From Candidatus Omnitrophota bacterium (GTDB lineage: Bacteria; Omnitrophota; Gorgyraeia; Tantalellales; Tantalellaceae), in assembly GCA_015231405.1 (NCBI GenBank), contig JADGBR010000007.1:40791-104790 (forward strand): 64,000 nt of DNA, in the 5' to 3' direction. Shown here in pieces: positions 9,316 to 62,717 of the stretch (the first letter of the stretch is position 1; each line of letters begins with the position of its first letter). The notes under the pieces are model-generated. The model saw nothing but the letters and a program-made list of their open reading frames with translations. It was not told the origin of the DNA and did not search any database. The translations under genes were made by a program, and so were the position numbers.

Positions 9316-9410
9316 CCGTCATTGCGAGGAGCAATAGCGACGAAGCAATCCCTGTAATTTATTATTTTAACAGAGATTGCTTCGGGCACTTCGTGCCCTC
9401 GCAATGACGG
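9316..9410. repeat. Palindromic intergenic repeat element, family A (core CCGTCATTGCGAGGAGC-AGCGACGAAGCAATC), full copy with inverted partner
   Basis: CCGTCATTGCGAGG (9316-) pairs with CCTCGCAATGACGG (-9410); inner GAAGCAATC/GATTGCTTC. Related copies at 12325 and 16899. Confidence 0.6.
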
Positions 9411-9433
9411 CTAATTTGTCCGTAACTATTATT

Positions 9434-10465
9434 ATGAAACAGCCTGATTTGTCACCCACCACCCGGCACATAATTATAGATCCGGACAATATCGATCCGG
9501 ATCTTATTCGGGAAGCAGCGGATGTCATACGAAGAGGCGGACTTGTAGCCTTCCCCACAGAAACCGTTTACGGGCTCGGAGCGAACGCTCTTGACGCTAA
9601 GGCGGTCGCGAAGATATTCGAAGCGAAAAAAAGGCCTCTTGATGATCCGCTTATCGTTCACATAAATGATAAAGCGAGTTTGGATATTCTCGTCCGCGAT
9701 ATTTCCCCGGTTGAAACAGCTCTCGCGGCCAGGTTCTGGCCGGGGGCTCTTACGCTCGTCCTGAATAAAAAGGACATTATCCCGGATATCGTCACTACGG
9801 GTCTCGATAGCGCCGCTATACGTATGCCCTCCGGAAAGATAGCCTTGGCTCTTATAAAGGCCGCCGGTGTGCCCATCGCGGCGCCGTCGGCGAACCTTTT
9901 CGGGAAGACATCGCCGACGACCGCGGCCCATGTGAAAGAGGATCTTGACGGAAGGATAGACCTGATCATCGACGGAGGCAGTACGGATATAGGAGTAGAA
10001 TCTACCGTTATATCTGTCGTGGACGGTGAAGTGCGGATCCTGAGGCCGGGAGGGGTCAGCGTAGAGGAAATTAGGGAGATCGTTCCGCGCGTGAAGGTAT
10101 ATACGGAAGAGGAAATAATTAAATGCTCACCCGGGAAATACAAACAGCACTACGCGCCCCGCGCGGCGGTAGTTATAGTAGCGAATGACCGGGCGCAGAC
10201 GGATAAATGCCTGGCCCTGGCTAAAGAGGCGGCTAAAAGATCGAAAGTCGGGATAATGTCAAAGGCCGAGCACGCTGTGTTCTATAAGCCTTTCAATACG
10301 CGGGTCATGGGTCCCGGTGACGATCTCGCCAAATGCGCAACAGGTCTTTTCCGTGTGCTTAGGGAATTCGATTCCGACGGTACCGAAATAATTTTCGCCG
10401 AAGCGGTCGAGGAGCGCGGTTTGGGGCTCGCGATCATGAACAGGCTGCGTAAGGCGGCGGGGTAG
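9434..10465 (+). CDS. tsaC: L-threonylcarbamoyladenylate synthase (Sua5/YrdC/TsaC family)
   Basis: VAFPTETVYGLGANALD and Sua5 C-terminal domain. The ORF-track TTG start at 9377 lies inside the palindromic repeat, so ATG 9434 is preferred. Confidence 0.8.
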   Translation: MKQPDLSPTTRHIIIDPDNIDPDLIREAADVIRRGGLVAFPTETVYGLGANALDAKAVAKIFEAKKRPLDDPLIVHINDKASLDILVRDISPVETALAARFWPGALTLVLNKKDIIPDIVTTGLDSAAIRMPSGKIALALIKAAGVPIAAPSANLFGKTSPTTAAHVKEDLDGRIDLIIDGGSTDIGVESTVISVVDGEVRILRPGGVSVEEIREIVPRVKVYTEEEIIKCSPGKYKQHYAPRAAVVIVANDRAQTDKCLALAKEAAKRSKVGIMSKAEHAVFYKPFNTRVMGPGDDLAKCATGLFRVLREFDSDGTEIIFAEAVEERGLGLAIMNRLRKAAG

Positions 10466-12324: not shown

Positions 12325-12416
12325 GCCGTCATTGCGAGGAGCGACAGCGACGAAACAATCTAGATGACTCTGATGGCGATAGCTTCACACCGCATGCTCA
12401 GGATTCGAAATGACGT
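12325..12416. repeat. Family A palindromic repeat, degenerate second arm
   Basis: GCCGTCATTGCGAGGAGCGACAGCGACGAAACAATC ... GATTCGAAATGACG. Confidence 0.5.
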
Positions 12417-16855: not shown

Positions 16856-16944
16856 TGGCGGGGTCTCCCCGCCCCGATGGGCTATAACCTAATAAGGGCC
16901 GTCATTGCGAAGGCGCGATAGCGCCTGAAGCAATCCCTAAAGGA
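16856..16944. repeat. Family C hairpin (16856-16885) followed by a family A half-element (16899-16944)
   Basis: GGCGGGGTCTCCCCGCCCC then GCCGTCATTGCGAAGGCGCGATAGCGCCTGAAGCAATCCC ending at the RBS of the next gene. Confidence 0.45.
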
Positions 16945-46048: not shown

Positions 46049-46591
46049 ATGGAACGCCGTTCGATATTTCACTTGGTATCCAAGATATCCAGGCAGGCCG
46101 GAGTTAACTGTGTGCTGATCGGCGGATTTGCCGTTAATTATTACAAAGTCACAAGGCAGACAGCTGATGTCGATTTTATGATAACGGAAGAGGATTATAG
46201 AAAGATCGAAGCTTTGATCAAAGAGGCAGAATACAAAGAGGATCAAAGCCATGGGAATTTTATACGGTTAAAGAGTACCGGCAGCAAGTTCTTTATGGAT
46301 GTCGATTTTATGTTCGTAGATAAAAATACGCTGGATAAGATCCTGGACAATGGAAAAAAAATGACCATAGCGGGGCAGGAATTTACAGTGCCTTCTTTGA
46401 ACGATCTCATCGCGTTGAAACTCCATGCCCTTAAATACAATGCTAAACTGAGAGAGACTAAAGATCTGCCGGATATTATCGATCTTATCAGGATAAACAA
46501 TATAGAATATAAGAGCAAAGACTTTCACGATCTATGTTTTAAGTATGGTAATGCCGAGACATACGAAAAGATAATGAAAACACTGGAGTAA
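46049..46591 (+). CDS. Nucleotidyltransferase-fold protein (AbiEii/MJ1651-like minimal NTase?)
   Basis: VLIGGFAVNYY...DVDFMI pattern. Confidence 0.35.
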   Translation: MERRSIFHLVSKISRQAGVNCVLIGGFAVNYYKVTRQTADVDFMITEEDYRKIEALIKEAEYKEDQSHGNFIRLKSTGSKFFMDVDFMFVDKNTLDKILDNGKKMTIAGQEFTVPSLNDLIALKLHALKYNAKLRETKDLPDIIDLIRINNIEYKSKDFHDLCFKYGNAETYEKIMKTLE

Positions 46592-46865: not shown

Positions 46866-46941
46866 TCCTCGGTAGCTCAATGGTAGTAGCGACTGGCTGT
46901 TAACCAGTAGGTTGTAGGTTCGAGTCCTACCCGAGGAGCCA
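46866..46941 (+). tRNA. tRNA-Asn (anticodon GTT)
   Basis: Hand-folded cloverleaf: acceptor TCCTCGG/CCGAGGA, anticodon stem ACTGG/CCAGT with loop CTGTTAA, T-arm GTAGG-TTCGAGT-CCTAC, discriminator G, encoded CCA. Confidence 0.85.
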
Positions 46942-47369: not shown

Positions 47370-49787
47370 ATGCGGCTTTATTCAGGAACATCAAAACAGT
47401 TTATTCAAGATGCGATTCATAATCAGATTGCAGAGAAGTTAAAAAACGCTTTTTTCGGCTATTACCGCTACAATCCTTCTCCTGCTGAGATAAATTCTTG
47501 GCGAAATTCGCTACGTTCAATGTCCCAAGTATTTCAACACGCAGATCTATTGGACAATGGAGTTCTTCTCGAGTATCAACTGCCTCTAACTTCGAGACGC
47601 TTAGATTGCATGATCTGTGGCCGTGATCAGCAAAAAACTGATAATGCGGTTATCGTGGAGTTGAAACAATGGGATAAGTGCGAAGAAGCCTATGGTGATA
47701 ACGAAGTACTTACGTGGGTAGGAGGTGCAAAACGCGAAGTATTGCATCCGTCGGTTCAAGTGGGACAATACCACCTTTATCTGGAAGATACCCATACAGC
47801 ATTTAACAGCGAAGATGATCCTGTTGTCCTGAATGCCTGTACTTATTTGCATAATTACAATTACTATTCTGAGGACATTATTTATTCGGATAAATTTGCT
47901 CAGACTCTTGAGAAGTACCCCTTATTTACAGCTGATGATGTGGAAAAATTAACGGGTTATTTGCGTAATAGACTTTTGGCCGGTGATGGCTTGGATGTTT
48001 TGCAGAGGATCGAAGAAAGTAAATATCGGCCGAATAAGAAGCTCATGGATCATGTTGGTAATATTATAAAAAACAAAACAGAATATATACTGCTAGATGA
48101 ACAACTTATTGTTTACGATGCGGTCTTGGCATGCGCGAAGCGAAGCTTCCATGATAAGCAGAAGTCAATAATTGTTGTAAAAGGTGGTCCGGGAACGGGT
48201 AAGTCTGTTATAGCGATTAATTTAATGGCTGATTTGCTATTAAAGGGATACAACTCTCATTATGCCACTGGCTCTAAGGCCTTCACGGAAACACTGCGGG
48301 AAATCATAGGAACTCGAGGATCTGTGCAGTTTAAGTATTTTAATAGTTACAGCCAAGCTGAAGAGAATGCCATAGATATCCTGATTGCTGATGAAGCCCA
48401 CCGCATACGCGAGACAAGCAATAGCCGATTCACACCCCGTTCGAGTCGATCAGAAAAGACGCAAATTGAGGAATTGCTTCGAGCGTCTAAAGTCGCGGTA
48501 TTTTTCATTGATGACGATCAAGTGGTGCGTCCAAATGAAATAGGTTCGGTTGATTATATTAAGAATATTGCGGGCGATAATAAAATAAAGCTCCACGAAT
48601 ATGAATTAGAAGCTCAGTTCCGTTGTAATGGTTCTGATGCGTTTGTGAGCTGGATAAACAATACGTTAGGGATAAAAAGAACTGCCCATGTTATTTGGGA
48701 TCAGCATGAAGAATTTGATTTCAAGATATTTCCCAGTCCCCTTGAACTTGATAATGCCATACGGAAGAGAGTCGCGCGGGGTTCTACGGGGAGAGTAACG
48801 GCCGGGTTTTGCTGGGACTGGTCATTACCTAACGGCGATGGCACATTGAAAAACGATGTGATAATTGGAGATTATAAGCGGCCATGGAATGCTAAACCCG
48901 AAGCTCAACGTCTGGCGCTGGGTATCCCCAAAGCTTCTCTGTGGGCATACGAACCTGTCGGCATTGATCAGGTAGGATGTGTCTATACCGCTCAAGGTTT
49001 TGAATTCGATTACGTTGGAGTTATTTTCGGCGAGGATGTGGTATATGATTTTGACAAGCAAGAATGGGTTGGCAATCCCGCTAAGTCTTCGGACAGAGTT
49101 GTTAAACGGTCTAAAGACAAATTTGCCGATTTAGTGAAAAATACCTATAGGGTTTTATTGAGTAGAGGGATGAAGGGCTGCTATGTATATTTCATGAATA
49201 AAGATACTGAACGTTTCTTTAAGTCACGGATTGAAGGTGATAATACACGGGTAGACGAACCCTTAACAGTATCTAAACTACTAGATAGCGAGTCGGATTT
49301 TCTTGAGCGTATTTTACAGGATGTTGACAGTTCTTTAAAATATAAGGAATATTTACCCGTTTATACTTTGACTGCAGCTGCTAGCGCGTTCGGCGAGGGT
49401 ATGGATGTTAGGGAAAAGGGTTGGATTAAAGTTAATATTGGAAAGCCACTAAACAGAAAATTGTTCGTTGCAAAAGTGGTTGGAAAATCAATGGAGCCGC
49501 TGATCCCAGATGGCAGCTATTGTGTATTTAGCGCGAATGTTGTTGGTACGCGGGCAAACAAAATAGTATTAGTGCAACACAATAGCATTTCAGATCTAGA
49601 TACCGGTGGAAGATATACCATAAAAAAGTACACGAGTAAGAAACGATACGCGTCAGATGAAACCTGGGAGCACGAAGAGATAGTCCTACTGCCAATTAAT
49701 CCCGCATATGCGCCGATTATAATACCAAATACCAACGAGGATGAATTTATGGTAATCGCTGAGTTTATTACCATAATAAAGAATTAG
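47370..49787 (+). CDS. PD-(D/E)xK nuclease / DUF2075-type P-loop ATPase fused to a C-terminal LexA-like S24 peptidase domain
   Basis: N-terminal nuclease-like D...VELK motif. Walker A GGPGTGKS and Walker B LIADEAH. C-terminal GKSMEP (Ser) ... TIKKY (Lys) ... VLLPINPAYAPI matches the LexA/UmuD catalytic-domain pattern. Confidence 0.7.
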   Translation: MRLYSGTSKQFIQDAIHNQIAEKLKNAFFGYYRYNPSPAEINSWRNSLRSMSQVFQHADLLDNGVLLEYQLPLTSRRLDCMICGRDQQKTDNAVIVELKQWDKCEEAYGDNEVLTWVGGAKREVLHPSVQVGQYHLYLEDTHTAFNSEDDPVVLNACTYLHNYNYYSEDIIYSDKFAQTLEKYPLFTADDVEKLTGYLRNRLLAGDGLDVLQRIEESKYRPNKKLMDHVGNIIKNKTEYILLDEQLIVYDAVLACAKRSFHDKQKSIIVVKGGPGTGKSVIAINLMADLLLKGYNSHYATGSKAFTETLREIIGTRGSVQFKYFNSYSQAEENAIDILIADEAHRIRETSNSRFTPRSSRSEKTQIEELLRASKVAVFFIDDDQVVRPNEIGSVDYIKNIAGDNKIKLHEYELEAQFRCNGSDAFVSWINNTLGIKRTAHVIWDQHEEFDFKIFPSPLELDNAIRKRVARGSTGRVTAGFCWDWSLPNGDGTLKNDVIIGDYKRPWNAKPEAQRLALGIPKASLWAYEPVGIDQVGCVYTAQGFEFDYVGVIFGEDVVYDFDKQEWVGNPAKSSDRVVKRSKDKFADLVKNTYRVLLSRGMKGCYVYFMNKDTERFFKSRIEGDNTRVDEPLTVSKLLDSESDFLERILQDVDSSLKYKEYLPVYTLTAAASAFGEGMDVREKGWIKVNIGKPLNRKLFVAKVVGKSMEPLIPDGSYCVFSANVVGTRANKIVLVQHNSISDLDTGGRYTIKKYTSKKRYASDETWEHEEIVLLPINPAYAPIIIPNTNEDEFMVIAEFITIIKN

Positions 49788-49897: not shown

Positions 49898-50078
49898 TAA
49901 CAGTGGTGTAATATGTTATGCACAGTGTCTGCGGGGATGCGGGGAGGGGAGAGTTTAAGCGAAGGTTATGCAAGAAAGCCGGCAGATGGGTGTCAAGGCG
50001 TAAAAAGGCACCCGGATTTGTTTCATAACTAACGGTGGTGTAATATGTTATGCACAGTGTCTGCGGGGAGAACGGGGC
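49898..50078. repeat. Two 40-bp direct repeats (49898-49937 and 50039-50078): TAAC(A/G)GTGGTGTAATATGTTATGCACAGTGTCTGCGGGGA
   Basis: Identical except for one base; located between the S24-fusion gene and its truncated 3' duplicate. Confidence 0.8.
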
Positions 50079-52498: not shown

Positions 52499-53071
52499 GT
52501 GGATATGAGCGTATTACTCGGAACCAGACTCCGCAACAAGCTGTTAACTTACGCGTTCTCCCGCGCGGACGGTGAGTTTTATGTGCGCGAGGCTGCCTCG
52601 GTCATAGGAGAGGACCCCGGCAACCTTTCAAGGGAGCTTAAACGCCTTGAGGGCGAGGGTCTTTTTGTTTCCCGCACTTCCGCGAACGCCAGATTTTATT
52701 CGGTCAATAAGAACTATTATCTTTTCAATGAGCTCAAGGCCGTTGTCGCCAAAACGTCGGGCGTTGAGGCCAGACTGAAGGACATAGCTGCGTCGCACAA
52801 AGAAATAGAGCTCGCGTTCATTTACGGATCATACGCGAAAAATACCGAGAAAAAAGGTTCTGATATCGACGTTGTCTTTGTAGGAAGATCTCTTCCCGAA
52901 AAGGTCATTACTGATATCAACTTGCTTGAGAGCGAGATCTCAAGAGAGATCAACTACACGTTCTACAAAAAAAACGACTTTGAGAAAAAACGCCTTGAAA
53001 AAGGCGGTTTTCTCGCCGAAGTTCTCGCCGGGAAAACCCTGGTACTGAAAGGGGAGGTCCATGAAAGATAA
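52499..53071 (+). CDS. HTH + minimal nucleotidyltransferase (MNT-type) protein
   Basis: N-terminal winged-helix-like region; NTase motif IYGSYAKNTEKKGSDIDVVFV. Confidence 0.6.
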   Translation: MDMSVLLGTRLRNKLLTYAFSRADGEFYVREAASVIGEDPGNLSRELKRLEGEGLFVSRTSANARFYSVNKNYYLFNELKAVVAKTSGVEARLKDIAASHKEIELAFIYGSYAKNTEKKGSDIDVVFVGRSLPEKVITDINLLESEISREINYTFYKKNDFEKKRLEKGGFLAEVLAGKTLVLKGEVHER

Positions 53072-53144
53072 ACTGGTAGAAAGGCTAATTAAGGAAGAAA
53101 AACTTTAAAAACAGACATCCGGGATAATTCAGGTAGAAAAACTT

Positions 53145-53534
53145 TTGAAAGAAGCCGTAATTGATATGGGAGAGGCATCGAAGATCAGAAATATTTCCGA
53201 AAGGGGAACATATCTTCTTGCCTACGGGGCGATGCTTAAAACCGGAAGGGCTCTCGTTCTTTTCCTGGGATATGTCCCGGATGACGGGGCGCAGCATAGG
53301 ACCGTGACAGAAATTGTCGCCGCGTGTCTGGGAGAAAAATTCAATAAAGTTACGTCTCATTTTGAAAGAATGCGCAGAAAAAGGAACGATCTTACATATG
53401 AGGCGGGCATTCTCCTTTCCGGAAGCGAAGCGGAAGAGGCGTTGTCCGACGCGAAAAAGCTTATCAGTGAAATATCTAACCACATAAAGACCAAGGATCC
53501 ACAGCTGCGGTTCGATTTTGAAGTTGAGTCATGA
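53145..53534 (+). CDS. HEPN-like / NTase-substrate-binding-like partner of the MNT gene (TTG start)
   Basis: Position directly downstream of the MNT gene. RMRRKRNDLTYEAG resembles the Rx4-6H HEPN motif but with Y/T in place of H. Assigned by context. Confidence 0.4.
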   Translation: MKEAVIDMGEASKIRNISERGTYLLAYGAMLKTGRALVLFLGYVPDDGAQHRTVTEIVAACLGEKFNKVTSHFERMRRKRNDLTYEAGILLSGSEAEEALSDAKKLISEISNHIKTKDPQLRFDFEVES

Positions 53535-53867: not shown

Positions 53868-53930
53868 CCTTTATAAGAGATCATACTTTATCTAAAGACA
53901 CTTCCATAAAACAATACAATAATTTCCAAA

Positions 53931-54271
53931 ACAAATCCGGGTAATTGAATGGCTAATACCCGGATTTATTTTGTAATGTCTTGACTATAAACAGCTTGCA
54001 GAAAGTGTCTGCCTGGGGTATATAAACAGCTTGCAGAAAGTGTCTGCCTGGGGTAAATACCCGGATTTATTTTGTAATGTCTTGACTATAAACAGCTTGC
54101 AGAAAGTGTCTGCCTGGGGTAAAGTGTCTGCCTGGGGTATTGACTATAAACAGCTTGCAGAAAGTGTCTGCCTGGGGTCAACAAATCCGGGTAATTGAAT
54201 GGCTAATACCCGGATTTATTTTGTAATGTCTTGACTATAAACAGCTTGCAGAAAATGACTGCCTGGGGTAT
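53931..54271. repeat. Nested direct-repeat (iteron-like) array upstream of kaiC
   Basis: A 91-bp unit (AACAAATCCGGGTAATTGAATGGCTAATACCCGGATTTATTTTGTAATGTCTTGACTATAAACAGCTTGCAGAAAGTGTCTGCCTGGGGTA) occurs at 53931 and 54181. Its 31-bp core AAACAGCTTGCAGAAAGTGTCTGCCTGGGGT occurs 5 times plus a partial, at irregular spacing. An internal 11-bp inverted repeat is AAATCCGGGTA/TACCCGGATTT. Confidence 0.85.
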
Positions 54272-54353
54272 TTCCAGGACGTTAGGGAAGGCCACTGGGC
54301 CCCGTTCTCGGTATTTCATGTAGGTCGCTAGGACGTGAAAAAAGGAGATCAGA

Positions 54354-55817
54354 ATGGCAAAATCAAAAAGTGTGTTGGGGGTGGGCAGAGTAATGCCTGA
54401 GCTACCTAAAGTTATGACCGGCATTCAGGGGTTAGATGAGATAACATTCGGAGGACTGCCAAAGGGGCGACCTACCCTTGTGTGCGGAGGCCCCGGTTGC
54501 GGCAAGACGCTCTTGGCTATGGAGTTTCTTTGCAGGGGCGCTCTGCAATATAACGAACCCGGCGTCTTTATTGCCTTCGAAGAGAAAGAGAAAGATCTGG
54601 AGGAAAATTTCGCCTCGCTCGGTTTCGATTTAAAATCGCTTGTAAAGCACAAAAAACTCGTTATCGATTATGTCTACATCGAAAGAAGCGAGATCGAAGA
54701 GACGGGCGAATATGATCTTGAAGGACTCTTCGTCCGTTTAGCGGCCGCCATTGATTCGATCGGCGCAAAAAGAGTAGTTCTCGATACCATCGAGGCCCTA
54801 TTTTCAGGGTTTTCAAATGAATCGATCCTGCGCGCGGAATTAAGGCGGCTATTCCGCTGGCTTAAAGATAAGGGAGTCACGGCAGTAATTACCGGCGAAA
54901 AAGGCGAGTCACTTCTAACAAAGCATGGATTGGAAGAGTATGTCGCGGATTGCGTCATACTCCTCGATCACCGCACGGTTAATCAGATTGCAACGAGACG
55001 TCTTAAGATAATAAAGTATCGCGGTTCAAAACACGGAACCAACGAATTCCCGTTCCTTATAGGCGAAACCGGTATCTCTGTTTTTCCCATGACGAGCTTA
55101 CTTTTATCAAGCACTGTGAGCTCTCGGCGTATATCATCCGGCATAAAGAGCCTCGATGAGATGTTGGGCAATAAAGGCTATTACAGGGGGAGCACTATCC
55201 TTGTATCCGGATCAGCAGGAAGCGGGAAGACCAGCTTTGGCGCCAAGTTTGTGGACGCCGTATGTGAGACTGGCGAACGCGCGTTATATCTCGCTTTTGA
55301 GGAGCCTGAAGACCAGCTATCCAGAAATATGAAGAGCATAGGTATCGATCTTAAGAAGTGGATAGATAAAGGGCTATTGAAGATCAATGCTAACAGGGCA
55401 ACCCTGTGCGGCCTTGAGATGCATCTTGTCATGGCGCATAACGCAGTAAGAGATTTTAAGCCGTCGGTCGTTGTCATAGATCCGATCACGACACTGATAG
55501 GCGCAGGGATGGCGGATGAGGCAAAAGCGATGATGGCCAGGCTTCTCGATTATCTTAGGAACGAAGGCATCACCGTTTTGGCGACAGACCTCTCGCTTGG
55601 CAGTACTCATGGGGATAGCGCGGAAATAGGCATATCATCTCTTTGTGACACGTGGATAAGGCTATCCATGGAAACTCAAGGATACAGGAGGATGCGCAGA
55701 CTTAGTATCATAAAATCAAGAGGCATGAAACATGCCCATGATACAAAAGATTTTATGATAACCGACAACGGGCTCGAGATGAAAGATATTCCCGGCCGAA
55801 AGGAGGACTTAAGATGA
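54354..55817 (+). CDS. kaiC: KaiC-like double RecA-domain ATPase
   Basis: [16 protein letters not shown], two Walker A motifs ([16 protein letters not shown]), 487 aa; strong RBS AAAAGGAGA. Confidence 0.85.
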
Positions 55818-56100: not shown

Positions 56101-56433
56101 ATGGCTAAACAAAAAAACGATATCGGAAAACAATTGGAACAGCGAACAAAGAAAAAAGAAATGAAAAAATATGTCCTTCATCTCTATGTCGCTGGTCTTT
56201 CTCCACGGTCACAAAAAGCGATAGATAATATAAAGAAACTATGCGATGAGCACTTAAAAGGTCAGTATGAACTTGTGATTCAGGATATATATAAGAACCC
56301 TGTGATGGCCAAGAACAGTCAGATACTTGCCGCGCCTACTCTTGTCAAAGAATTACCTTTGCCTCTACGCAAGTTTGTGGGGGATATGTCTAACACGGAA
56401 AGATTAATTCTCGGATTGGATCTTAAGGAATAA
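56101..56433 (+). CDS. kaiB: KaiB, copy 2 with basic N-terminal extension
   Basis: LHLYVAGLSPRSQKAIDNIKKLCDEHLKGQYELVIQDIYKNPVMAKNSQILAAPTLV; 110 aa. Confidence 0.8.
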   Translation: MAKQKNDIGKQLEQRTKKKEMKKYVLHLYVAGLSPRSQKAIDNIKKLCDEHLKGQYELVIQDIYKNPVMAKNSQILAAPTLVKELPLPLRKFVGDMSNTERLILGLDLKE

Positions 56434-56439
56434 TAATAA

Positions 56440-58915
<2,476 letters not shown>

Positions 58916-58926
<11 letters not shown>

Positions 58927-59278
58927 ACGAATTTTGATTATTGAAGATGATATCCATCTCGCCGATTCGCTTTCCGAGCTTTTAGAGGATGAAGGCTACT
59001 TTGTGGAGTGCGCCAAGGACGCAGTTAAGGGAGAGATCCTTATAAGAAAGGGCAACTTCGACGTCATTCTGCTGGATTACAAAATGCCCTTACTTAGCGG
59101 CATAGACATACTCAAAAAGCTTAAAGCCGATAATATAAGAAAACGTATTTTTATTGTCTCAGGAAGACCTTCTACGGAGCGATCTCTCAAAGAAGAAGAT
59201 GTTTTTGATATGATCAGCGGCATAATCGTAAAACCCATTAATATTGAAGCTTTTCTTGAGAAAATAAAAAATGCATAA
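58916..59278 (+). CDS. Stand-alone receiver-domain response regulator (CheY-like)
   Basis: ILIIEDD ... DVILLDYKMP ... phosphoacceptor pattern; 120 aa; overlaps the kinase stop by 11 bp. Confidence 0.85.
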
Positions 59279-59522
59279 AAGAATTTTGTTGGTAGACACC
59301 GATGTGAGTGTATGTGATTCAGTGGCTACTTTATTGCGACTCGAGGGGTATTGTGTTGATGAGATAACTTCGGGTGAAGCTAAATTTTGGATAGAACCGA
59401 TAGTGTCGTTAGCTTCATATTGCAAGTTAAACAAGGCTAAACTGAATCAGGCACAGAAATTAGTGGAGAAACATAAAGATGAGATCATTAAAGAATGGAA
59501 AAACTATTTCGGTAAGTGTTGA
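59271..59522 (+). pseudogene. Chimeric ORF: N-terminus of a second receiver domain fused in frame to the C-terminal half of a DUF4160-family protein
   Basis: MHKRILLVDTDVSVCDSVATLLRLEGY parallels the preceding regulator's N-terminus. AKFWIEPIVSLASYCKLNKAKLNQAQKLVEKHKDEIIKEWKNYF resembles the DUF4160 C-terminal helix region but lacks its N-terminal HPPHFHA part. Confidence 0.4.
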
Positions 59523-59739
59523 AAATATTACTCCTTTCGGTATTTGGTTGTATGTGAAGCAGAGAGAATATTTTTTGAGTTACGAGGATTACCCATATTT
59601 CAGGGAGAAACCCATATCTGCCATTCAAAAAGTTAAACTTCTTCACGGATTTCATCTTCATTGGAAAGATCTAGATGTTGATCTTGAAATTGATAATTTG
59701 GAAAATCCTGAAAAATATCCATTGAAAAGCAAGGATTAG
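59479..59739 (+). CDS. DUF2442-family protein
   Basis: ITPFGIWLYVKQREYFLSYEDYPYF ... LHWKDLDVDLEIDNL pattern. Confidence 0.55.
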   Translation: MRSLKNGKTISVSVENITPFGIWLYVKQREYFLSYEDYPYFREKPISAIQKVKLLHGFHLHWKDLDVDLEIDNLENPEKYPLKSKD

Positions 59740-59897
59740 GTTTGTTTAAATAGCCGCGAAACTCGTCCAATCCGGGGAACCAATTTGTAACAAGGGCAGA
59801 ACTTCACTTTTTGAGGTTCTGCCTTTGTCGTTTATTATGGGGATGTTATAGTGAACTGTGGCTTTGGATGGGTAACAGCTATCCTTTCGATAAACGA

Positions 59898-59920
59898 TTA
59901 CGCATTATGACACAGTCTGA
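59898..59920 (+). repeat. Left 23-bp direct repeat TTACGCATTATGACACAGTCTGA bounding the AbiEi-like/Fic module
   Basis: Matches 61770-61792 (TTACGCATTGTGACACAGTCTGA) at 22/23. Inverted copy at 61604-61623; partial copies at 61643-61656 and 61750-61763. Confidence 0.8.
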
Positions 59921-59953
59921 GTGCGTATTCGTGATCTGATCGCTAAAAATTAT

Positions 59954-59992
59954 TTGACTTGTTGTCAGAAAAATGATATATGTTTTCTGACA
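59954..59992 (+). promoter_or_regulatory. Putative sigma70-type promoter with embedded operator palindrome upstream of the AbiEi-like gene
   Basis: TTGACT (59954-59959), 17-bp spacer, TATATG (59977-59982). Perfect 10-bp inverted repeat TGTCAGAAAA (59963-59972) / TTTTCTGACA (59983-59992) overlaps the -10. Confidence 0.45.
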
Positions 59993-59999
59993 TATAAAA

Positions 60000-60608
60000 G
60001 TGATAAATATGACAGAATCCATTGAGAATAGAATACTTCACCGGATCATTGGCAAGAAAAAGGGGTGGGTGTTTGCCCCAACTCATTTTTTTGATCTTGG
60101 AAATCGTGCCGGGATAGATCAGGCCTTAAGCCGGTTGGTTCGGTCTCGGGATATCCGCAGATTAACGCGTGGTCTTTATGATTATCCCCGGAAGGATCCG
60201 ACTTTTGGAGATGTGCCTCCAAGCGTTGATCGTCTTGCCGCCGCACTTGCTGAAAAAGATAATCTTAAGATCCAACCTTCCGGAGCATACGCGGCCAACT
60301 TGCTTGGCATGTCTCATCAAGTACCGGCAAAGATTGTTTTCTTAACAGACGGATCTTCCCGTATGGTTCAGATCGGCAATTGGCATATTAAGTTAAAAAA
60401 GACAACACCCAAGAATATGGCGACCGCTGGGCGCATGAGCGGCTTGGTTATTCAAGCCTTACGTTATATGACGCAAGAGAATATCGATGGCAAAATTATT
60501 AAAAAACTTAAAGGAAAATTATCAGTCGAGGACAAAAAACAGCTTATGAGTGATATTCGTTATGCCCCGGCTTGGATAGGTGAAATATTTAAACAGCTAA
60601 ATTCGTAG
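60000..60608 (+). CDS. AbiEi-like / DUF6088-type winged-HTH protein (putative antitoxin/regulator)
   Basis: GWVFAPTHFFDLGNRAGIDQALSRLVRSRDIRRLTRGLYDYP pattern. GTG at 60000 or ATG at 60009. Confidence 0.5.
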   Translation: MINMTESIENRILHRIIGKKKGWVFAPTHFFDLGNRAGIDQALSRLVRSRDIRRLTRGLYDYPRKDPTFGDVPPSVDRLAAALAEKDNLKIQPSGAYAANLLGMSHQVPAKIVFLTDGSSRMVQIGNWHIKLKKTTPKNMATAGRMSGLVIQALRYMTQENIDGKIIKKLKGKLSVEDKKQLMSDIRYAPAWIGEIFKQLNS

Positions 60609-60655
60609 CATTTTCTTGGCTTTTATACCAGTAAGCCAGTAAGGATGGAGGACAT

Positions 60656-61396
60656 ATGAAAGAGATTTTAAGTAAGGTTGAAGAGGCTCAGGCGAAAATA
60701 AACGCATTGCGTCCATTTTGTAATGAAATGAACCATCAAATAAAGGAATATTTTCGTATCGGGCTCACCTATTCAAGCAATGCGCTTGAGGGCAACTCTC
60801 TGACGATATCGGAAACAAAAGTGGTCATCGAGGATGGGCTTACCATAGCCGGAAAGCCGCTTAGAGATCATTACGAGGCCACGGGCCACAGTGACGCGTT
60901 CGATCACATGTATGCTCTCTCTACAGGAAAAACGATAACGGAAGAAGATACTAAAAAATTGCACGCGCTCTTTTATCACCGCATTAAAGAAGGGGATGCG
61001 GGGGTGTATCGAAAAGTCCAGGCCATTATTACCGGCTCTCAATATCCATTGCCTACGCCTGAGGCATTGCCGGGAATGATGCAGAAATTTATTAAAGATC
61101 TGCCCAATTTAAAAATAGACAACCATCCGGTTGTCTATGCCGCCAAGCTCCATAAAGAGTTTGTGTTCATTCACCCGTTTGTTGATGGCAATGGGCGGGT
61201 AGCAAGACTTTTAATGAATGTGGCGCTTATGCAGGCAGGATACATTATTGCGATCATTCCGCCGCTCAAACGGTCGGAATACATCAGCGCTCTTGAAAAA
61301 TCGCATAAAATTGATGCGGATTTTATTGAGTTGATAGCGTCATGCGTCTATGAAACTCAGAACGATCTATTACGCATGGCTAATGGGAAAAGTTGA
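60656..61396 (+). CDS. fic: Fic-family protein (class II, with intrinsic N-terminal inhibitory motif)
   Basis: HPFVDGNGRVARLL active-site motif. N-terminal SNALEG matches the (S/T)xxxE(G/N) inhibitory motif. Confidence 0.9.
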   Translation: MKEILSKVEEAQAKINALRPFCNEMNHQIKEYFRIGLTYSSNALEGNSLTISETKVVIEDGLTIAGKPLRDHYEATGHSDAFDHMYALSTGKTITEEDTKKLHALFYHRIKEGDAGVYRKVQAIITGSQYPLPTPEALPGMMQKFIKDLPNLKIDNHPVVYAAKLHKEFVFIHPFVDGNGRVARLLMNVALMQAGYIIAIIPPLKRSEYISALEKSHKIDADFIELIASCVYETQNDLLRMANGKS

Positions 61397-61465
61397 ATTA
61401 ATGATGTGATGCAAACAGACCATTTTGTCGACCTCAACGAAATAGTTGATCGAGAGGTCGTGCGA

Positions 61466-61627
61466 TGAAAGTCAAAGAGCTGATCGATCGGTTGAAAGCT
61501 CTGCCAGCTGAAACTCAGGTACTAGCAAAGGGATATGAAGATGGATTTGACGGCATTATTGCCGTTAAGGAGATCGCTGTTGCCAAGAAGCCTGCCGCCG
61601 CTGATTACAGTCAGACTGTGTCATAAT
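61466..61627 (+). CDS. Possible small ORF (53 aa) whose 3' end runs into the inverted copy of the 20-bp boundary motif
   Basis: ATG with GAGAGG 8 nt upstream; MKVKELIDRLKALPAETQVLAKGYEDGFDGIIAVKEIAVAKKPAAADYSQTVS. Confidence 0.2.
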
Positions 61628-61769
61628 CCGAAAGCGGCACGAAACACAGTCTGAGTTTTTACAAAAACCAATGTTTTATCAAACTCTTATCCTCCTAGTA
61701 AACCCAAAAGGCTCACTAGGAGGGTAAGAACAACTTTTTTTCTGAAAAGATTCAGACTGTGTCCCTCTA

Positions 61770-61792
61770 TTACGCATTGTGACACAGTCTGA
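61770..61792 (+). repeat. Right 23-bp direct repeat TTACGCATTGTGACACAGTCTGA
   Basis: See the left-repeat entry at 59898-59920. Confidence 0.8.
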
Positions 61793-61982
61793 CTGCTAGC
61801 TGCAGATCCTTCGATTATACTCCGGTACAATTGACGCCATCCTGTATACTGCTACGATAAAGCTGTATGAATTTACTAACGTTATGCCGGACGATCACAT
61901 TCTTGTGAGTCTGATAAGCGGTATAGCGGTACGAGGGATGTTTAAAAGTTAAAAACCTTAAAACTAATAAAGGAGGCAATTT

Positions 61983-62717
61983 ATGAAACGCATCGTTTAT
62001 TTCACTGTATCTATCATGATCCTATTCCTATCGGCGCGGCCAACGCACGCCGATGATAACCGAGGCAATGAGAACATGAGAAAATACAAGGGAACGGACC
62101 AAAATAATGACGGTAAGATCACGCGCGAGGAATGGCAGAGTTTTTTTAATAACCATGATTGGAACGGTGATGGCATCCTATCGGGCGGCGAGATGAATCC
62201 GAGAGCGAGCCGTCAGGATGTAACGTTAACCGCTTCCGATCAATTCCGCGCATTAGACCGGAACAACGATGGCATGATCTCAACCGGCGAATGGACAGGT
62301 ACGATGCAGGACTTTAATAGCCTGGATAGGGATAGCAACAACAATGTAAGTATTAACGAGTTCTATCAGCGCTCGGGGACAGATCAATTCAGCGAACTCG
62401 ATTACAATAAGGATGGGATCATTTTACGCGATGAATGGCGTAACACCTCGCAGTCATTTGAAGCTCTGGATCAGAACCGCGACGGAAAATTGACCCGAGA
62501 TGAATTTTATAATACGCAAAAATACAACGTTTCCGTCTTCCGCGAGCTCGATCAGAACAACGACGGTAAGATCTCGCGCAGCGAATGGCGCAGTACGAAC
62601 GACGCTTTTAACAGGCTGGACAGCAATGGGGATGAGCTATTGAGCGAGAATGAATTCAATTCAACTCAAAGTCGCAGTATCACTCAAACGATATTTCAGG
62701 AAATCTTTGGAAAGTGA
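61983..62717 (+). CDS. Secreted EF-hand calcium-binding repeat protein
   Basis: Signal peptide; at least seven DxNxDGxIxxxE loops (DQNNDGKITREE, DWNGDGILSGGE, DRNNDGMISTGE, DYNKDGIILRDE, DQNRDGKLTRDE, DQNNDGKISRSE, DSNGDELLSENE). Confidence 0.8.
   Translation: MKRIVYFTVSIMILFLSARPTHADDNRGNENMRKYKGTDQNNDGKITREEWQSFFNNHDWNGDGILSGGEMNPRASRQDVTLTASDQFRALDRNNDGMISTGEWTGTMQDFNSLDRDSNNNVSINEFYQRSGTDQFSELDYNKDGIILRDEWRNTSQSFEALDQNRDGKLTRDEFYNTQKYNVSVFRELDQNNDGKISRSEWRSTNDAFNRLDSNGDELLSENEFNSTQSRSITQTIFQEIFGK

Follow-up and report, generated by a model that had tools for sequence, protein, structure and literature searches.

Type IV toxin-antitoxin (TA) and abortive-infection systems of the AbiE type are bicistronic operons in which an AbiEi-family winged helix-turn-helix (wHTH) protein of ~200 aa is encoded upstream of the nucleotidyltransferase (NTase) AbiEii, with inverted repeats over the promoter. 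The AbiEi protein of S. agalactiae is an autorepressor that attaches to inverted repeats of the promoter (Dy et al. 2014, PMC3985639), and AbiEi and MenA3 antitoxins induce auto-phosphorylation of NTase toxins (PMC11375011 and a 2026 preprint). Here we describe a locus in a stretch of 64,000 nucleotides from a Candidatus Omnitrophota bacterium (contig JADGBR010000007.1), the whole of which is called the window below. In this locus a gene for an AbiEi-family protein of the DUF6088 type precedes a gene for a class II Fic protein, and short repeats stand on both sides of the pair. A sequence-only reading had taken the arrangement for a small mobile cassette with boundaries resembling attachment (att) sites or terminal inverted repeats, or for a set of recombinase or regulator binding sites. 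The explanation favoured here, with a probability of roughly 0.7, is that two unrelated features lie side by side, namely the DUF6088-Fic operon (59944-61402) and palindromic elements, and that the bracketing is incidental, the repeats being neither att sites nor transposon ends.

The operon shares with AbiE the upstream wHTH gene of the AbiEi family, the bicistronic arrangement and inverted repeats over the promoter, and more distant DUF6088 members on plasmids stand directly before AbiEii. It differs in that the place of the toxin is taken by a Fic AMP-transferase and not by a DUF1814 nucleotidyltransferase. Auto-phosphorylation, the neutralisation route of AbiE and of the M. tuberculosis pair MenA3/MenT3 (PMC11375011), is specific to NTases and should not be taken for granted with Fic. 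The operators also differ, S. agalactiae AbiE having a 23-3-23 arrangement and the window a single 10-N10-10 palindrome. With the class II Fic proteins (human FICD/HYPE, SoFic and PDC-S04) the window protein has in common the active-site motif HPFVDGNGRVAR, an N-terminal (S/T)xxxE(G/N) motif in cis and the existence of single-gene relatives, but it is shorter (246 aa), has neither tetratricopeptide repeats nor a C-terminal wHTH domain, and within its sub-clade is placed under an AbiEi-type gene and promoter. SoFic itself is said to have been reported by Millman and colleagues in 2022 as a single-gene phage-defence system. The class I systems FicT/FicA and VbhT/VbhA likewise consist of an operon of two genes, and in them Fic arrests growth, as it would here; in those systems, however, a small antitoxin supplies the inhibitory glutamate in trans, whereas in the window the motif is found in Fic itself and the partner is a wHTH protein of 199 aa. 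Membership of the class I FicTA (VbhTA-type) group was rejected, as the inhibitory motif is present in cis in Fic and DUF6088 contains no conserved copy of it.

The combination of one upstream partner with several unrelated toxin folds is a pattern shared with Panacea/DUF4065 (PMC8832971) and the NetFlax network (PMC10440598). The present case differs in its family (AbiEi/DUF6088), in a fixed breakpoint within the 3' end of the gene and in a second conserved flank, a Metallophos gene; the main text on NetFlax (PMC10440598) makes no mention of AbiE, COG5340 or DUF6088. In the literature searched, no description of an effector-swapping pattern with an AbiEi-type protein and class II Fic was found, the papers that mention DUF6088 do not pair it with Fic, and those co-mentions of AbiEi and Fic that were examined concern separate systems.

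The DUF6088-Fic operon and its limits

The operon comprises the following features, all coordinates being those of the window.

59954-59982, plus strand: sigma-70-type promoter with the -35 box TTGACT at 59954-59959, a 17-nt spacer and the -10 box TATATG at 59977-59982
59963-59992, no strand assigned: probable operator, the inverted repeat TGTCAGAAAA-N10-TTTTCTGACA, which straddles the -10 box and is conserved in 9 other loci
60009-60608, plus strand: gene for the DUF6088/AbiEi-family wHTH protein, 199 aa (Pfam PF19570, 2.2e-45)
60579-60608, plus strand: partner-linked 3' end of the DUF6088 gene, encoding the tail IGEIFKQLNS, site of the recombination breakpoint
60656-61396, plus strand: gene for the class II (FICD-like) Fic protein, 246 aa (Pfam Fic PF02661, 3.3e-21)

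The identity proposed for the upstream protein was confirmed. It matched the PADLOC AbiEi model PDLC02226 (1.6e-69) over residues 4-197 and thereby over its full length, together with 17 further AbiEi models; the score against Pfam AbiEi_4 was 17.1 bits, under the cutoff of 25. Its 7337 homologs, the closest of them 91% identical, include several from Omnitrophota, and some are named 'AbiEi family antitoxin domain-containing protein'. The Fic protein carries its active site HPFVDGNGRVAR at residues 173-184, and the pattern HxFx(D/E)GNGRxxR is kept in 119/120 homologs. The N-terminal inhibitory motif SNALEG (residues 41-46), from which the protein had been assigned to class II, aligned over TVAIEGN of FICD, and the cis motif is kept in 120/120 homologs. 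FICD structures are the closest solved relatives (1e-31), and in PADLOC the protein matched PDC-S04 (1.3e-30) and SoFic (1.9e-24), while the Pfam search gave no NTase hit for it. The two genes are separated by a gap of 47 nt, with a GGAGG ribosome-binding site 6 nt 5' of Fic.

Position and sequence of the promoter are kept in every homologous locus (TTGACT/TTGACA/TTTACT ... TATATT/TATAGT). The palindrome at 59963-59992, named earlier as a target for binding tests with the wHTH protein, is real and is conserved in the homologous loci; its outermost pair is altered on both sides in L014 and L044 (CGTCAG...CTGACG), which amounts to one compensatory change.

To delimit the module, the window was aligned at the DNA level with 26 loci that carry genes for close relatives of DUF6088 or Fic. 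The module as defined by homology extends over 1.46 kb (59944-61402) and contains the promoter, the operator palindrome and both genes. Homology starts at 59944-59954, at the -35 box, and in Fic-bearing loci reaches 61394-61402, slightly beyond the Fic stop codon, with a nucleotide identity to the window of 89.8% for L044 and ~83% for L021-25 and L045-48. On the left, homology thus begins 20 nt inward of the repeat, and on the right it stops ~205 nt before the first copy is reached. The repeats had been described as bracketing exactly the two-gene unit; this did not hold, as they also enclose a third open reading frame (ORF) at 61465-61626 and do not coincide with the homology unit. Moreover, the repeat motif was found in 0/26 of the homologous loci. 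That the module occurs without the motif and, as described below, the motif without the module speaks for independence of the two. The pairing of an AbiEi-type protein with class II Fic recurs in many metagenomic contigs, and relatives of the module at the DNA level on plasmids consist of ~45-nt matches in the Fic active-site region only.

The regions 5' of the promoter showed two further peculiarities. Canonical loci carry a block of ~100-150 nt with TGGACA/TGTCCA repeats (TGGACACGTAAATGTCCA, GGTGGACATTTTGGG) at this place (L014 4800-4935, L021 4800-4935, L044 215-304, L045 3845-3934, L049 3846-3935), which is present neither in the window nor in L018 and which may be a second region with a regulatory role or mark the actual border of the locus. 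In the window, the ORF at 59271-59522 joins 37 residues of a response-regulator receiver N-terminus, without a change of frame, to the C-terminal portion of a DUF4160 protein; DUF2442, the usual partner of DUF4160, follows at 59479-59739, and a rearrangement scar thus lies immediately 5' of the module. Downstream of the island, no reading frame continues the truncated response regulator.

Palindromic elements in the window and in other genomes

Repetitive extragenic palindromic (REP) sequences and bacterial interspersed mosaic elements (BIMEs), REP doublets forming hairpins (REPINs) and bacterial miniature inverted-repeat transposable elements (MITEs) such as Correia/NEMIS are short intergenic palindromes, and REP and REPIN families are usually species-specific. 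The repeats of the window were resolved into the following features.

59897-59924, plus strand: solo arm ATTACGCATTATGACACAGTCTGAGTGC, of the same orientation and subtype as the right arm 61769-61796
61606-61797, no strand assigned: complete nested palindromic (MITE/REPIN-like) element of ~190 nt, defined by RNA fold and arm pairing
61608-61633, minus strand, and 61769-61796, plus strand: outer arms of the nested element, 88% complementary over 26 nt
61644-61656, plus strand, and 61752-61763, minus strand: inner arms of the nested element
61685-61741, plus strand: intrinsic-terminator-like hairpin forming the core of the element, with 20-nt arms (61685-61704/61710-61729) and a run of seven T (61735-61741)
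61465-61626, plus strand: 53-aa ORF of doubtful reality, no Pfam match, its last 6 codons and stop within the left arm of the palindromic element
9431-9447, plus strand: degenerate sixth copy ATTATGAAACAGCCTGA, 2/17 positions mismatched

The 23-mer TTACGCATTRTGACACAGTCTGA was found, as reported before, in exact copies at 59898-59920 and 61770-61792 (0 matches in window shuffles), and an inverted copy with 2 mismatches is located at 61611-61633. The direct repeat grows to 28 nt (59897-59924 versus 61769-61796) with 26/28 positions identical and a distance of 1872 nt. The count of five copies within 1.9 kb was likewise reproduced: the 11-mer ACACAGTCTGA occurs at 59910 (+), 61611 (-), 61644 (+), 61752 (-) and 61782 (+) versus 0.28 copies expected, a number reached in 0/100 shuffles. 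That the motif occurs nowhere else in the window is correct for exact copies but not for the degenerate copy at 9431-9447, which lies directly 3' of a REP-like hairpin pair (CGTCATTGCGAG...GCAATGACG) in a composite also seen in L004, L006 and L009.

The four right-hand copies, previously listed as separate sites, proved to be the paired arms of one nested hairpin. Folding of 61590-61810 paired copy 2 with copy 5 and copy 3 with copy 4, with -89.9 kcal/mol compared to -44.5 +/- 3.8 kcal/mol for shuffles (z = -11.9). The arms CAGTCAGACTGTGTCATAAT / ATTGTGACACAGTCTGACTG are paired continuously over 20 nt, bulge-free and with no GTTRRRY, and the element is edged by TA on the left and CTA on the right. 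The hairpin and T-run at 61685-61741 probably terminate the DUF6088-Fic transcript. The solo left arm lies ~70 nt 3' of another terminator-like hairpin (59790-59828); in the left flank (59740-59930) no likeness to the right-hand element was detected beyond the 28-mer, and no inverted partner was found upstream of the solo arm. The sole database match of the 53-aa ORF is the identical HQL30_05085 of a Candidatus Omnitrophica metagenome-assembled genome (MAG). A 12-mer, TCTATTACGCAT, is present both in the last Fic codons (61367-61378, LLRM) and at the inner edge of copy 5 (61766-61777), and the left copy AACGAT-TACGCAT is similar to AACGATCTATTACGCAT; the sharing of TCTATTACGCAT, with a post hoc chance of roughly 0.01, may be a coincidence or microhomology left by an earlier rearrangement.

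A wider search for the motif, as suggested along with the first reading, was performed by scanning one genome per species and a metagenome collection for the 20-mer ATTRTGACACAGTCTGASTG. It yielded 13 genome loci (~4 by chance, a rough estimate from collection size) and 18 metagenome loci, 31 in total and unrelated to DUF6088-Fic. The genome loci belong to Omnitrophota (4), an Elusimicrobiota MAG (4 contigs), Planctomycetota (2), Ignavibacteria, Muiribacteriota and one member of the Acutalibacteraceae. All exact hits (31/31) are intergenic, that is outside any ORF of at least 120 aa, and their flanks are unrelated to one another. An inverted partner was present 30-260 nt away in 15/31 hits, while 16/31 are solo arms. 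The order minus arm, variable self-folding interior, plus arm, with the arms 107-200 nt apart, was observed in L001, L005, L006, L009, L011 (twice), L012 and others, and L005, L009, L011 and L012 match the architecture of the window element. The neighbouring genes are often housekeeping genes. In L011, proB, element, proA and element follow one another in a co-directional, operon-like array; in L009 an element lies between deoC and folC, with further copies before radA (radA-ispD-deoC); and in L004 elements stand at both ends of the bat operon.

An element with the same interior was found in three genomic contexts in related genomes (L012 group, L027 group and L030), which points to the whole hairpin as the dispersing unit. 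The termini of this element are inverted past the 20-mer, and TA flanks each of the 3 copies. Retention of the same element at orthologous loci was seen across several metagenomes. The arm consensus is ATTRYGACACAGTCTGA-NTG, also written GACACAGTCTGA, and the interior varies; single arms have no stable internal hairpin and no GTAG-type 5' tetranucleotide. In L007 (5172-5202) and L009 (4630-4661) the arm is repeated in tandem in a 16-nt register (ATTGTGACACAGTCTG ATTGTGACACGGTCTC), and TGACAC is often repeated 14 nt downstream of the arm (GACACAGTCTGAnTGACAC), a pattern that suggests iterated sites for some binding protein. A second REP-like hairpin family, CGTCATTGCGAG...CGAAGCAATC (CGTCATTGCGAGG...GCGACGAAGCAATC), is present in the window at 9316-9411, 12326-12360 and 16898-16918; it also flanks the arm in L004, L005, L008, L009 and L011 (Omnitrophota, Elusimicrobiota) and often adjoins the ACACAGTCTGA arm in a BIME-like mosaic.

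Several searches for a known counterpart were negative. Rfam (58800-62200, E <= 1) gave no relevant match, the one hit to a mammalian long noncoding RNA model (58823-58896) being outside the motif and due to chance, and on six motif loci it detected two tRNAs only and nothing at the motif. The exact 23-mer had 0 matches in the metagenome collection, and in the literature searched the motif string and the neighbouring REP string appeared in no relevant context. A phage origin was rejected, as the 17-mer gave only 4 hits in IMG/VR, by rough estimate no more than chance. All-versus-all comparison of the ORFs from the 31 loci identified orthologous housekeeping genes only, with no transposase or REP-associated tyrosine transposase (RAYT) common to the motif loci.

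With REP/BIME, REPIN and MITE families the elements share their size as intergenic palindromes of 110-190 nt, inverted arms, a variable interior, solo arms, mosaics and overlap with terminators, and terminal inverted repeats together with dispersed copies, the mark of a MITE, are both present. They differ from REP/REPIN in that the arm is common to at least five phyla and in that single arms are not hairpins and carry no GTAG-type 5' tetranucleotide; membership of the RAYT-mobilised REP/REPIN families was rejected because the arm is not a hairpin and the family spans five or more phyla. Integron attC sites and Xer-dependent pdif modules resemble the window in that one or two TA-type genes lie between short sites and that the right site can fold as a hairpin. 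An attC or CALIN (cluster of attC sites lacking an integron-integrase) assignment was discarded in view of the missing R''/R' GTTRRRY boxes, the absence of extrahelical bases, the continuous pairing and a left junction that is a half-site only. An integron gene cassette was discarded as well, since arms elsewhere flank the core genes proA, folC, radA-ispD-deoC and the bat operon and no integrase is nearby. Finally, a Xer/dif or pdif module does not fit the 28-mer, which on reading its sequence lacks the 11-6-11 half-site symmetry.

Taken together, intergenic dispersal, inverted pairs, the three contexts and the lack of matches in Rfam or the literature and of enrichment in viral contigs argue for a MITE/REPIN-like class. 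To judge from these comparisons, the motif forms the end arm of palindromic elements of this kind, which are dispersed, confined to intergenic sites and spread over five or more phyla. The arm ATTRYGACACAGTCTGA may mark an undescribed multi-phylum family of palindromic elements with its own mobilising or binding protein.

Effectors downstream of the DUF6088 gene

DUF6088 genes that are 72-91% identical to that of the window at the protein level, and 80-91% identical at the nucleotide level including the promoter, precede four different types of effector. The representatives are as follows, with protein identity to the window.

P0001, 91%: followed by Fic, then Metallophos
P0051, 77%: followed by Fic, then Metallophos, on 24 or more contigs
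P0057, 77%: followed by Fic
P0004, 88%: followed by a Schlafen/AlbA_2 (SLFN_AlbA_2) protein
P0021, 85%: followed by DUF6577, then AbiEii (locus L018)
P0075, 72%: followed by a DUF1016/YhcG nuclease

The DNA identity to loci with another effector ends within the DUF6088 gene. For L014 (SLFN_AlbA_2) and L018 (DUF6577 and AbiEii) the alignment, at 91% identity, breaks off at 60575-60579, with ~30 nt of the DUF6088 gene left before its stop codon; L049, the YhcG locus, aligns at 84% and only as far as 60501. The protein tail encoded beyond this point is of two kinds. The window and 4/4 distinct Fic-linked relatives have IGEIFKQ(L/I)(N/D)S, while 3/3 distinct non-Fic loci have (I/V/M)EKV(V/I)R(K/R)LQ. 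In L044 the body of the protein is closest to the SLFN-linked gene and the tail is of the Fic type, and both tail classes are interleaved among the 120 closest DUF6088 homologs. On the evidence of these alignments, the comparison has shown that the DUF6088 gene and its promoter form a conserved platform, behind which the downstream effector has been exchanged by recombination ~30 nt before the DUF6088 stop codon.

A gene for Metallophos, a calcineurin-like phosphoesterase, lies 3' of the effector. It is found in two types (91-96% aa identity within a type) that are common to loci with different effectors, which makes the effector the variable middle between two conserved flanks; the Metallophos gene may be a third component of the system. 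Its coordinates are 7337-7960 in L014, 7490-8023 in L018, 6411-6986 in L021, 1784-2359 in L044 and 6139-6762 in L049.

More distant relatives place the pairing in a wider family. On plasmids of cultured Alphaproteobacteria, where DUF6088 is 40-48% identical (525 records), the gene stands directly before an AbiEii/AbiGii toxin in 3/3 plasmids inspected, in line with the earlier remark that Fic occupies the place of AbiEii. This gene order has shown the AbiEii nucleotidyltransferase to be the canonical partner in the wider DUF6088 family. Fic relatives (57-61% identity) without DUF6088 were found beside RhuM fragments, in a prophage-like stretch and next to vapBC.

Regarding its function, the most probable role of DUF6088 is that of an autorepressor or adaptor, as opposed to a classical Fic antitoxin. 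It would not work by plugging the active site, because Fic retains its own inhibitory glutamate E45, and the first assessment of the wHTH protein as a regulator or other kind of partner agrees with the cis motif in all homologs, the solitary Fic relatives and the occurrence of the same DUF6088 gene before three unrelated effectors. DUF6088 would repress the operon via the palindrome at 59963-59992, as AbiEi does, and could serve as a general adaptor or regulator for interchangeable effectors, while Fic would be kept off by E45. Relief of repression or of auto-inhibition, for example upon phage infection, might then allow Fic to AMPylate a cellular target, resulting in growth arrest, and the pair would act in defence as a module of the TA or abortive-infection type. 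The setting speaks for such a role, as the stretch from 46 to 62 kb carries several defence genes (an AbiEii-like NTase, a Schlafen-type helicase with S24 peptidase, an MNT NTase and a DUF4160/DUF2442 pair).

A broader interpretation is offered tentatively, as an idea with somewhat more against it than for it. DUF6088 with its promoter and operator, together with Metallophos, would form an effector-swapping locus of Omnitrophota-like bacteria in which unrelated toxic effectors (FICD-like Fic, Schlafen/AlbA_2, a YhcG nuclease of the PD-(D/E)xK type, DUF6577 with AbiEii) are swapped along with the last 10 codons, one AbiEi-type protein would control differing toxins by a common mechanism (transcriptional or tail-mediated) unlike the auto-phosphorylation of NTases, and the ATTRYGACACAGTCTGA arm would represent an undescribed element family.

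Competing explanations and significance

It is quite improbable that the 28-nt direct repeats are attL/attR-like or cassette boundaries and that DUF6088-Fic is a small mobile cassette moved by site-specific recombination. The nearly identical direct repeats do flank the genes far above chance, the left copy lies close to the start of homology with the usual flanks of the module missing, so that some rearrangement happened nearby, and TCTATTACGCAT stands both at the 3' end of Fic and just inside copy 5. However, the limits of module and repeats do not coincide, the motif is absent from 26/26 module loci and instead occupies 31 unrelated intergenic places in five or more phyla, many between housekeeping genes, and the right boundary is a 190-nt nested hairpin ~205 nt past the point where homology ends, an unrelated ORF lying between the two. 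In addition, no recombinase or transposase match was obtained among the ORFs tested (44.8-56.4 kb and 59.3-63.8 kb), the exact 23-mer is unmatched in metagenomes, attC or dif features are missing, and the bracketing copies are direct and not inverted. The arms could alternatively be protein-binding regulatory sites through which DUF6088 or another regulator controls the module, and here one could argue that wHTH proteins bind repeated DNA, that GTCTGAC of the arm is similar to the operator half-site TTCTGACA, and that arms are conserved without compensatory pairing (ATTRTG versus ATTACG, GACTG versus GAGTG; L005, L012), suggesting recognition of sequence and not of the stem alone. This has the least to recommend it: arms occur in genomes and loci without a nearby DUF6088 gene, DUF6088 loci elsewhere have no arms, 4/5 copies lie 3' of the operon around the terminator, and the conserved promoter palindrome is the obvious operator. 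The idea of sites specific to the module therefore gave way to that of an arm of a dispersed repeat. Whether the elements are still mobile is a separate matter. They might be domesticated REP/BIME-like structures with fixed positions, serving as terminators, stabilisers of mRNA 3' ends or sites for nucleoid proteins, in agreement with the canonical terminator hairpin and T-run enclosed by the window element, the location between co-directional genes in operon-like arrays, the mosaic with the CGTCATTGCGAG...CGAAGCAATC family as in BIMEs, the lack of a common transposase and the retention at orthologous loci across several metagenomes. We consider this unlikely, since the same-interior element in three contexts argues for dispersal of the whole unit, near-identical arms of 20-24 nt in five phyla fit a shared trans-acting enzyme or horizontal spread better, and solo arms are common.

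A different objection concerns DUF6088, which could be a true neutralising antitoxin of Fic, acting via its partner-specific C-terminal tail or by an enzymatic route, and the pair a bona fide TA system. The last 10 residues co-vary with the downstream effector, the operon coupling is tight, the DUF6088 family is annotated and modelled as AbiEi antitoxin, and hyperpromiscuous antitoxin domains are known (Panacea, PMC8832971). Nevertheless, we hold this to be rather doubtful, as Fic has its own inhibitory motif throughout its homologs and related Fic proteins stand alone. Neutralisation of four unrelated folds by one body through a 10-residue tail would be demanding, and the tail difference may merely mark the recombination breakpoint. 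A trans inhibitory motif was looked for in DUF6088 and no conserved one was found; a TESIEN-like pattern (residues 2-7) occurs in 29/120 homologs and is not tied to the tail type.

Several observations weigh against the favoured explanation of an operon and an independent family of elements, or against parts of it. Seven independent protein clusters, four with Fic and three without, underlie the association of tail and partner. Family membership (PADLOC AbiEi, PDC-S04, SoFic) and the defence-rich neighbourhood are the basis of the proposed defence or TA role, and in the test of the AbiEi fold the AlphaFold2 model had a mean pLDDT (predicted local distance difference test) of 73.9, with no significant match in Foldseek against the PDB. 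The window has neither the upstream TGGACA block nor the downstream Metallophos gene of canonical loci; these lost flanks, together with the 20-nt gap between the left repeat and the start of homology, make a repeat-linked rearrangement at the left junction possible. As to the palindromic family, the TA at its flanks may belong to the terminal repeat itself, and the term mobile refers to dispersal, as no clear target-site duplication, transposase or RAYT could be tied to it.

Further features were noted elsewhere in the window. The defence- or TA-type genes include the AbiEii/DUF2204-like NTase at 46049-46591, the Schlafen group-3 helicase fused to an S24 peptidase at 47370-49787 and the MNT-type NTase at 52499-53071, the latter with a small convergent ORF at 53085-53483. 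At the edge of this defence-rich stretch, tRNA-Asn (46866-46941) has an inverted copy of its last 25 nt 44 nt downstream (46919-46943/46988-47012, 92% complementary), which may be an integration scar or a terminator; a weak, sub-threshold Rfam small RNA hit lies between the tRNA end and the inverted copy. Five tandem units of ~49 nt (TTGACTATAAACAGCTTGCAGAAAGTGTCTGCCTGGGGTA) at 53930-54276, partly within 92-nt repeats, are located directly 5' of kaiC (54354-55817) and kaiB (56101-56433) and may be reiterated promoter or operator units; a 40-nt pair related to them starts at 49898 and 50030 (49898-50069). The PAS histidine kinase (56440-58926) ends in a KERKKERKKERKKER repeat, encoded by a (AAGAAAGA)n-like tract at 58855-58882.

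An AbiEi-type protein and a class II Fic are genuinely paired here and, as far as gene order and alignments tell, this is part of a wider effector swapping around the DUF6088 platform. AbiE is thought to depend on a specific relationship between antitoxin and nucleotidyltransferase, and an AbiEi-like gene combined with Fic, Schlafen-like, nuclease or NTase effectors questions the role of AbiEi-type proteins. Short repeats beside accessory genes in such genomes are, as a caution, no evidence of a cassette, and the palindromic arm shared across phyla is a separate small puzzle. For bacterial FICD-like Fic proteins, enzymes with poorly understood physiological triggers, the module gives a compact and defined context, and the DUF6088 locus represents a natural tail-swap experiment on AbiEi-type function.

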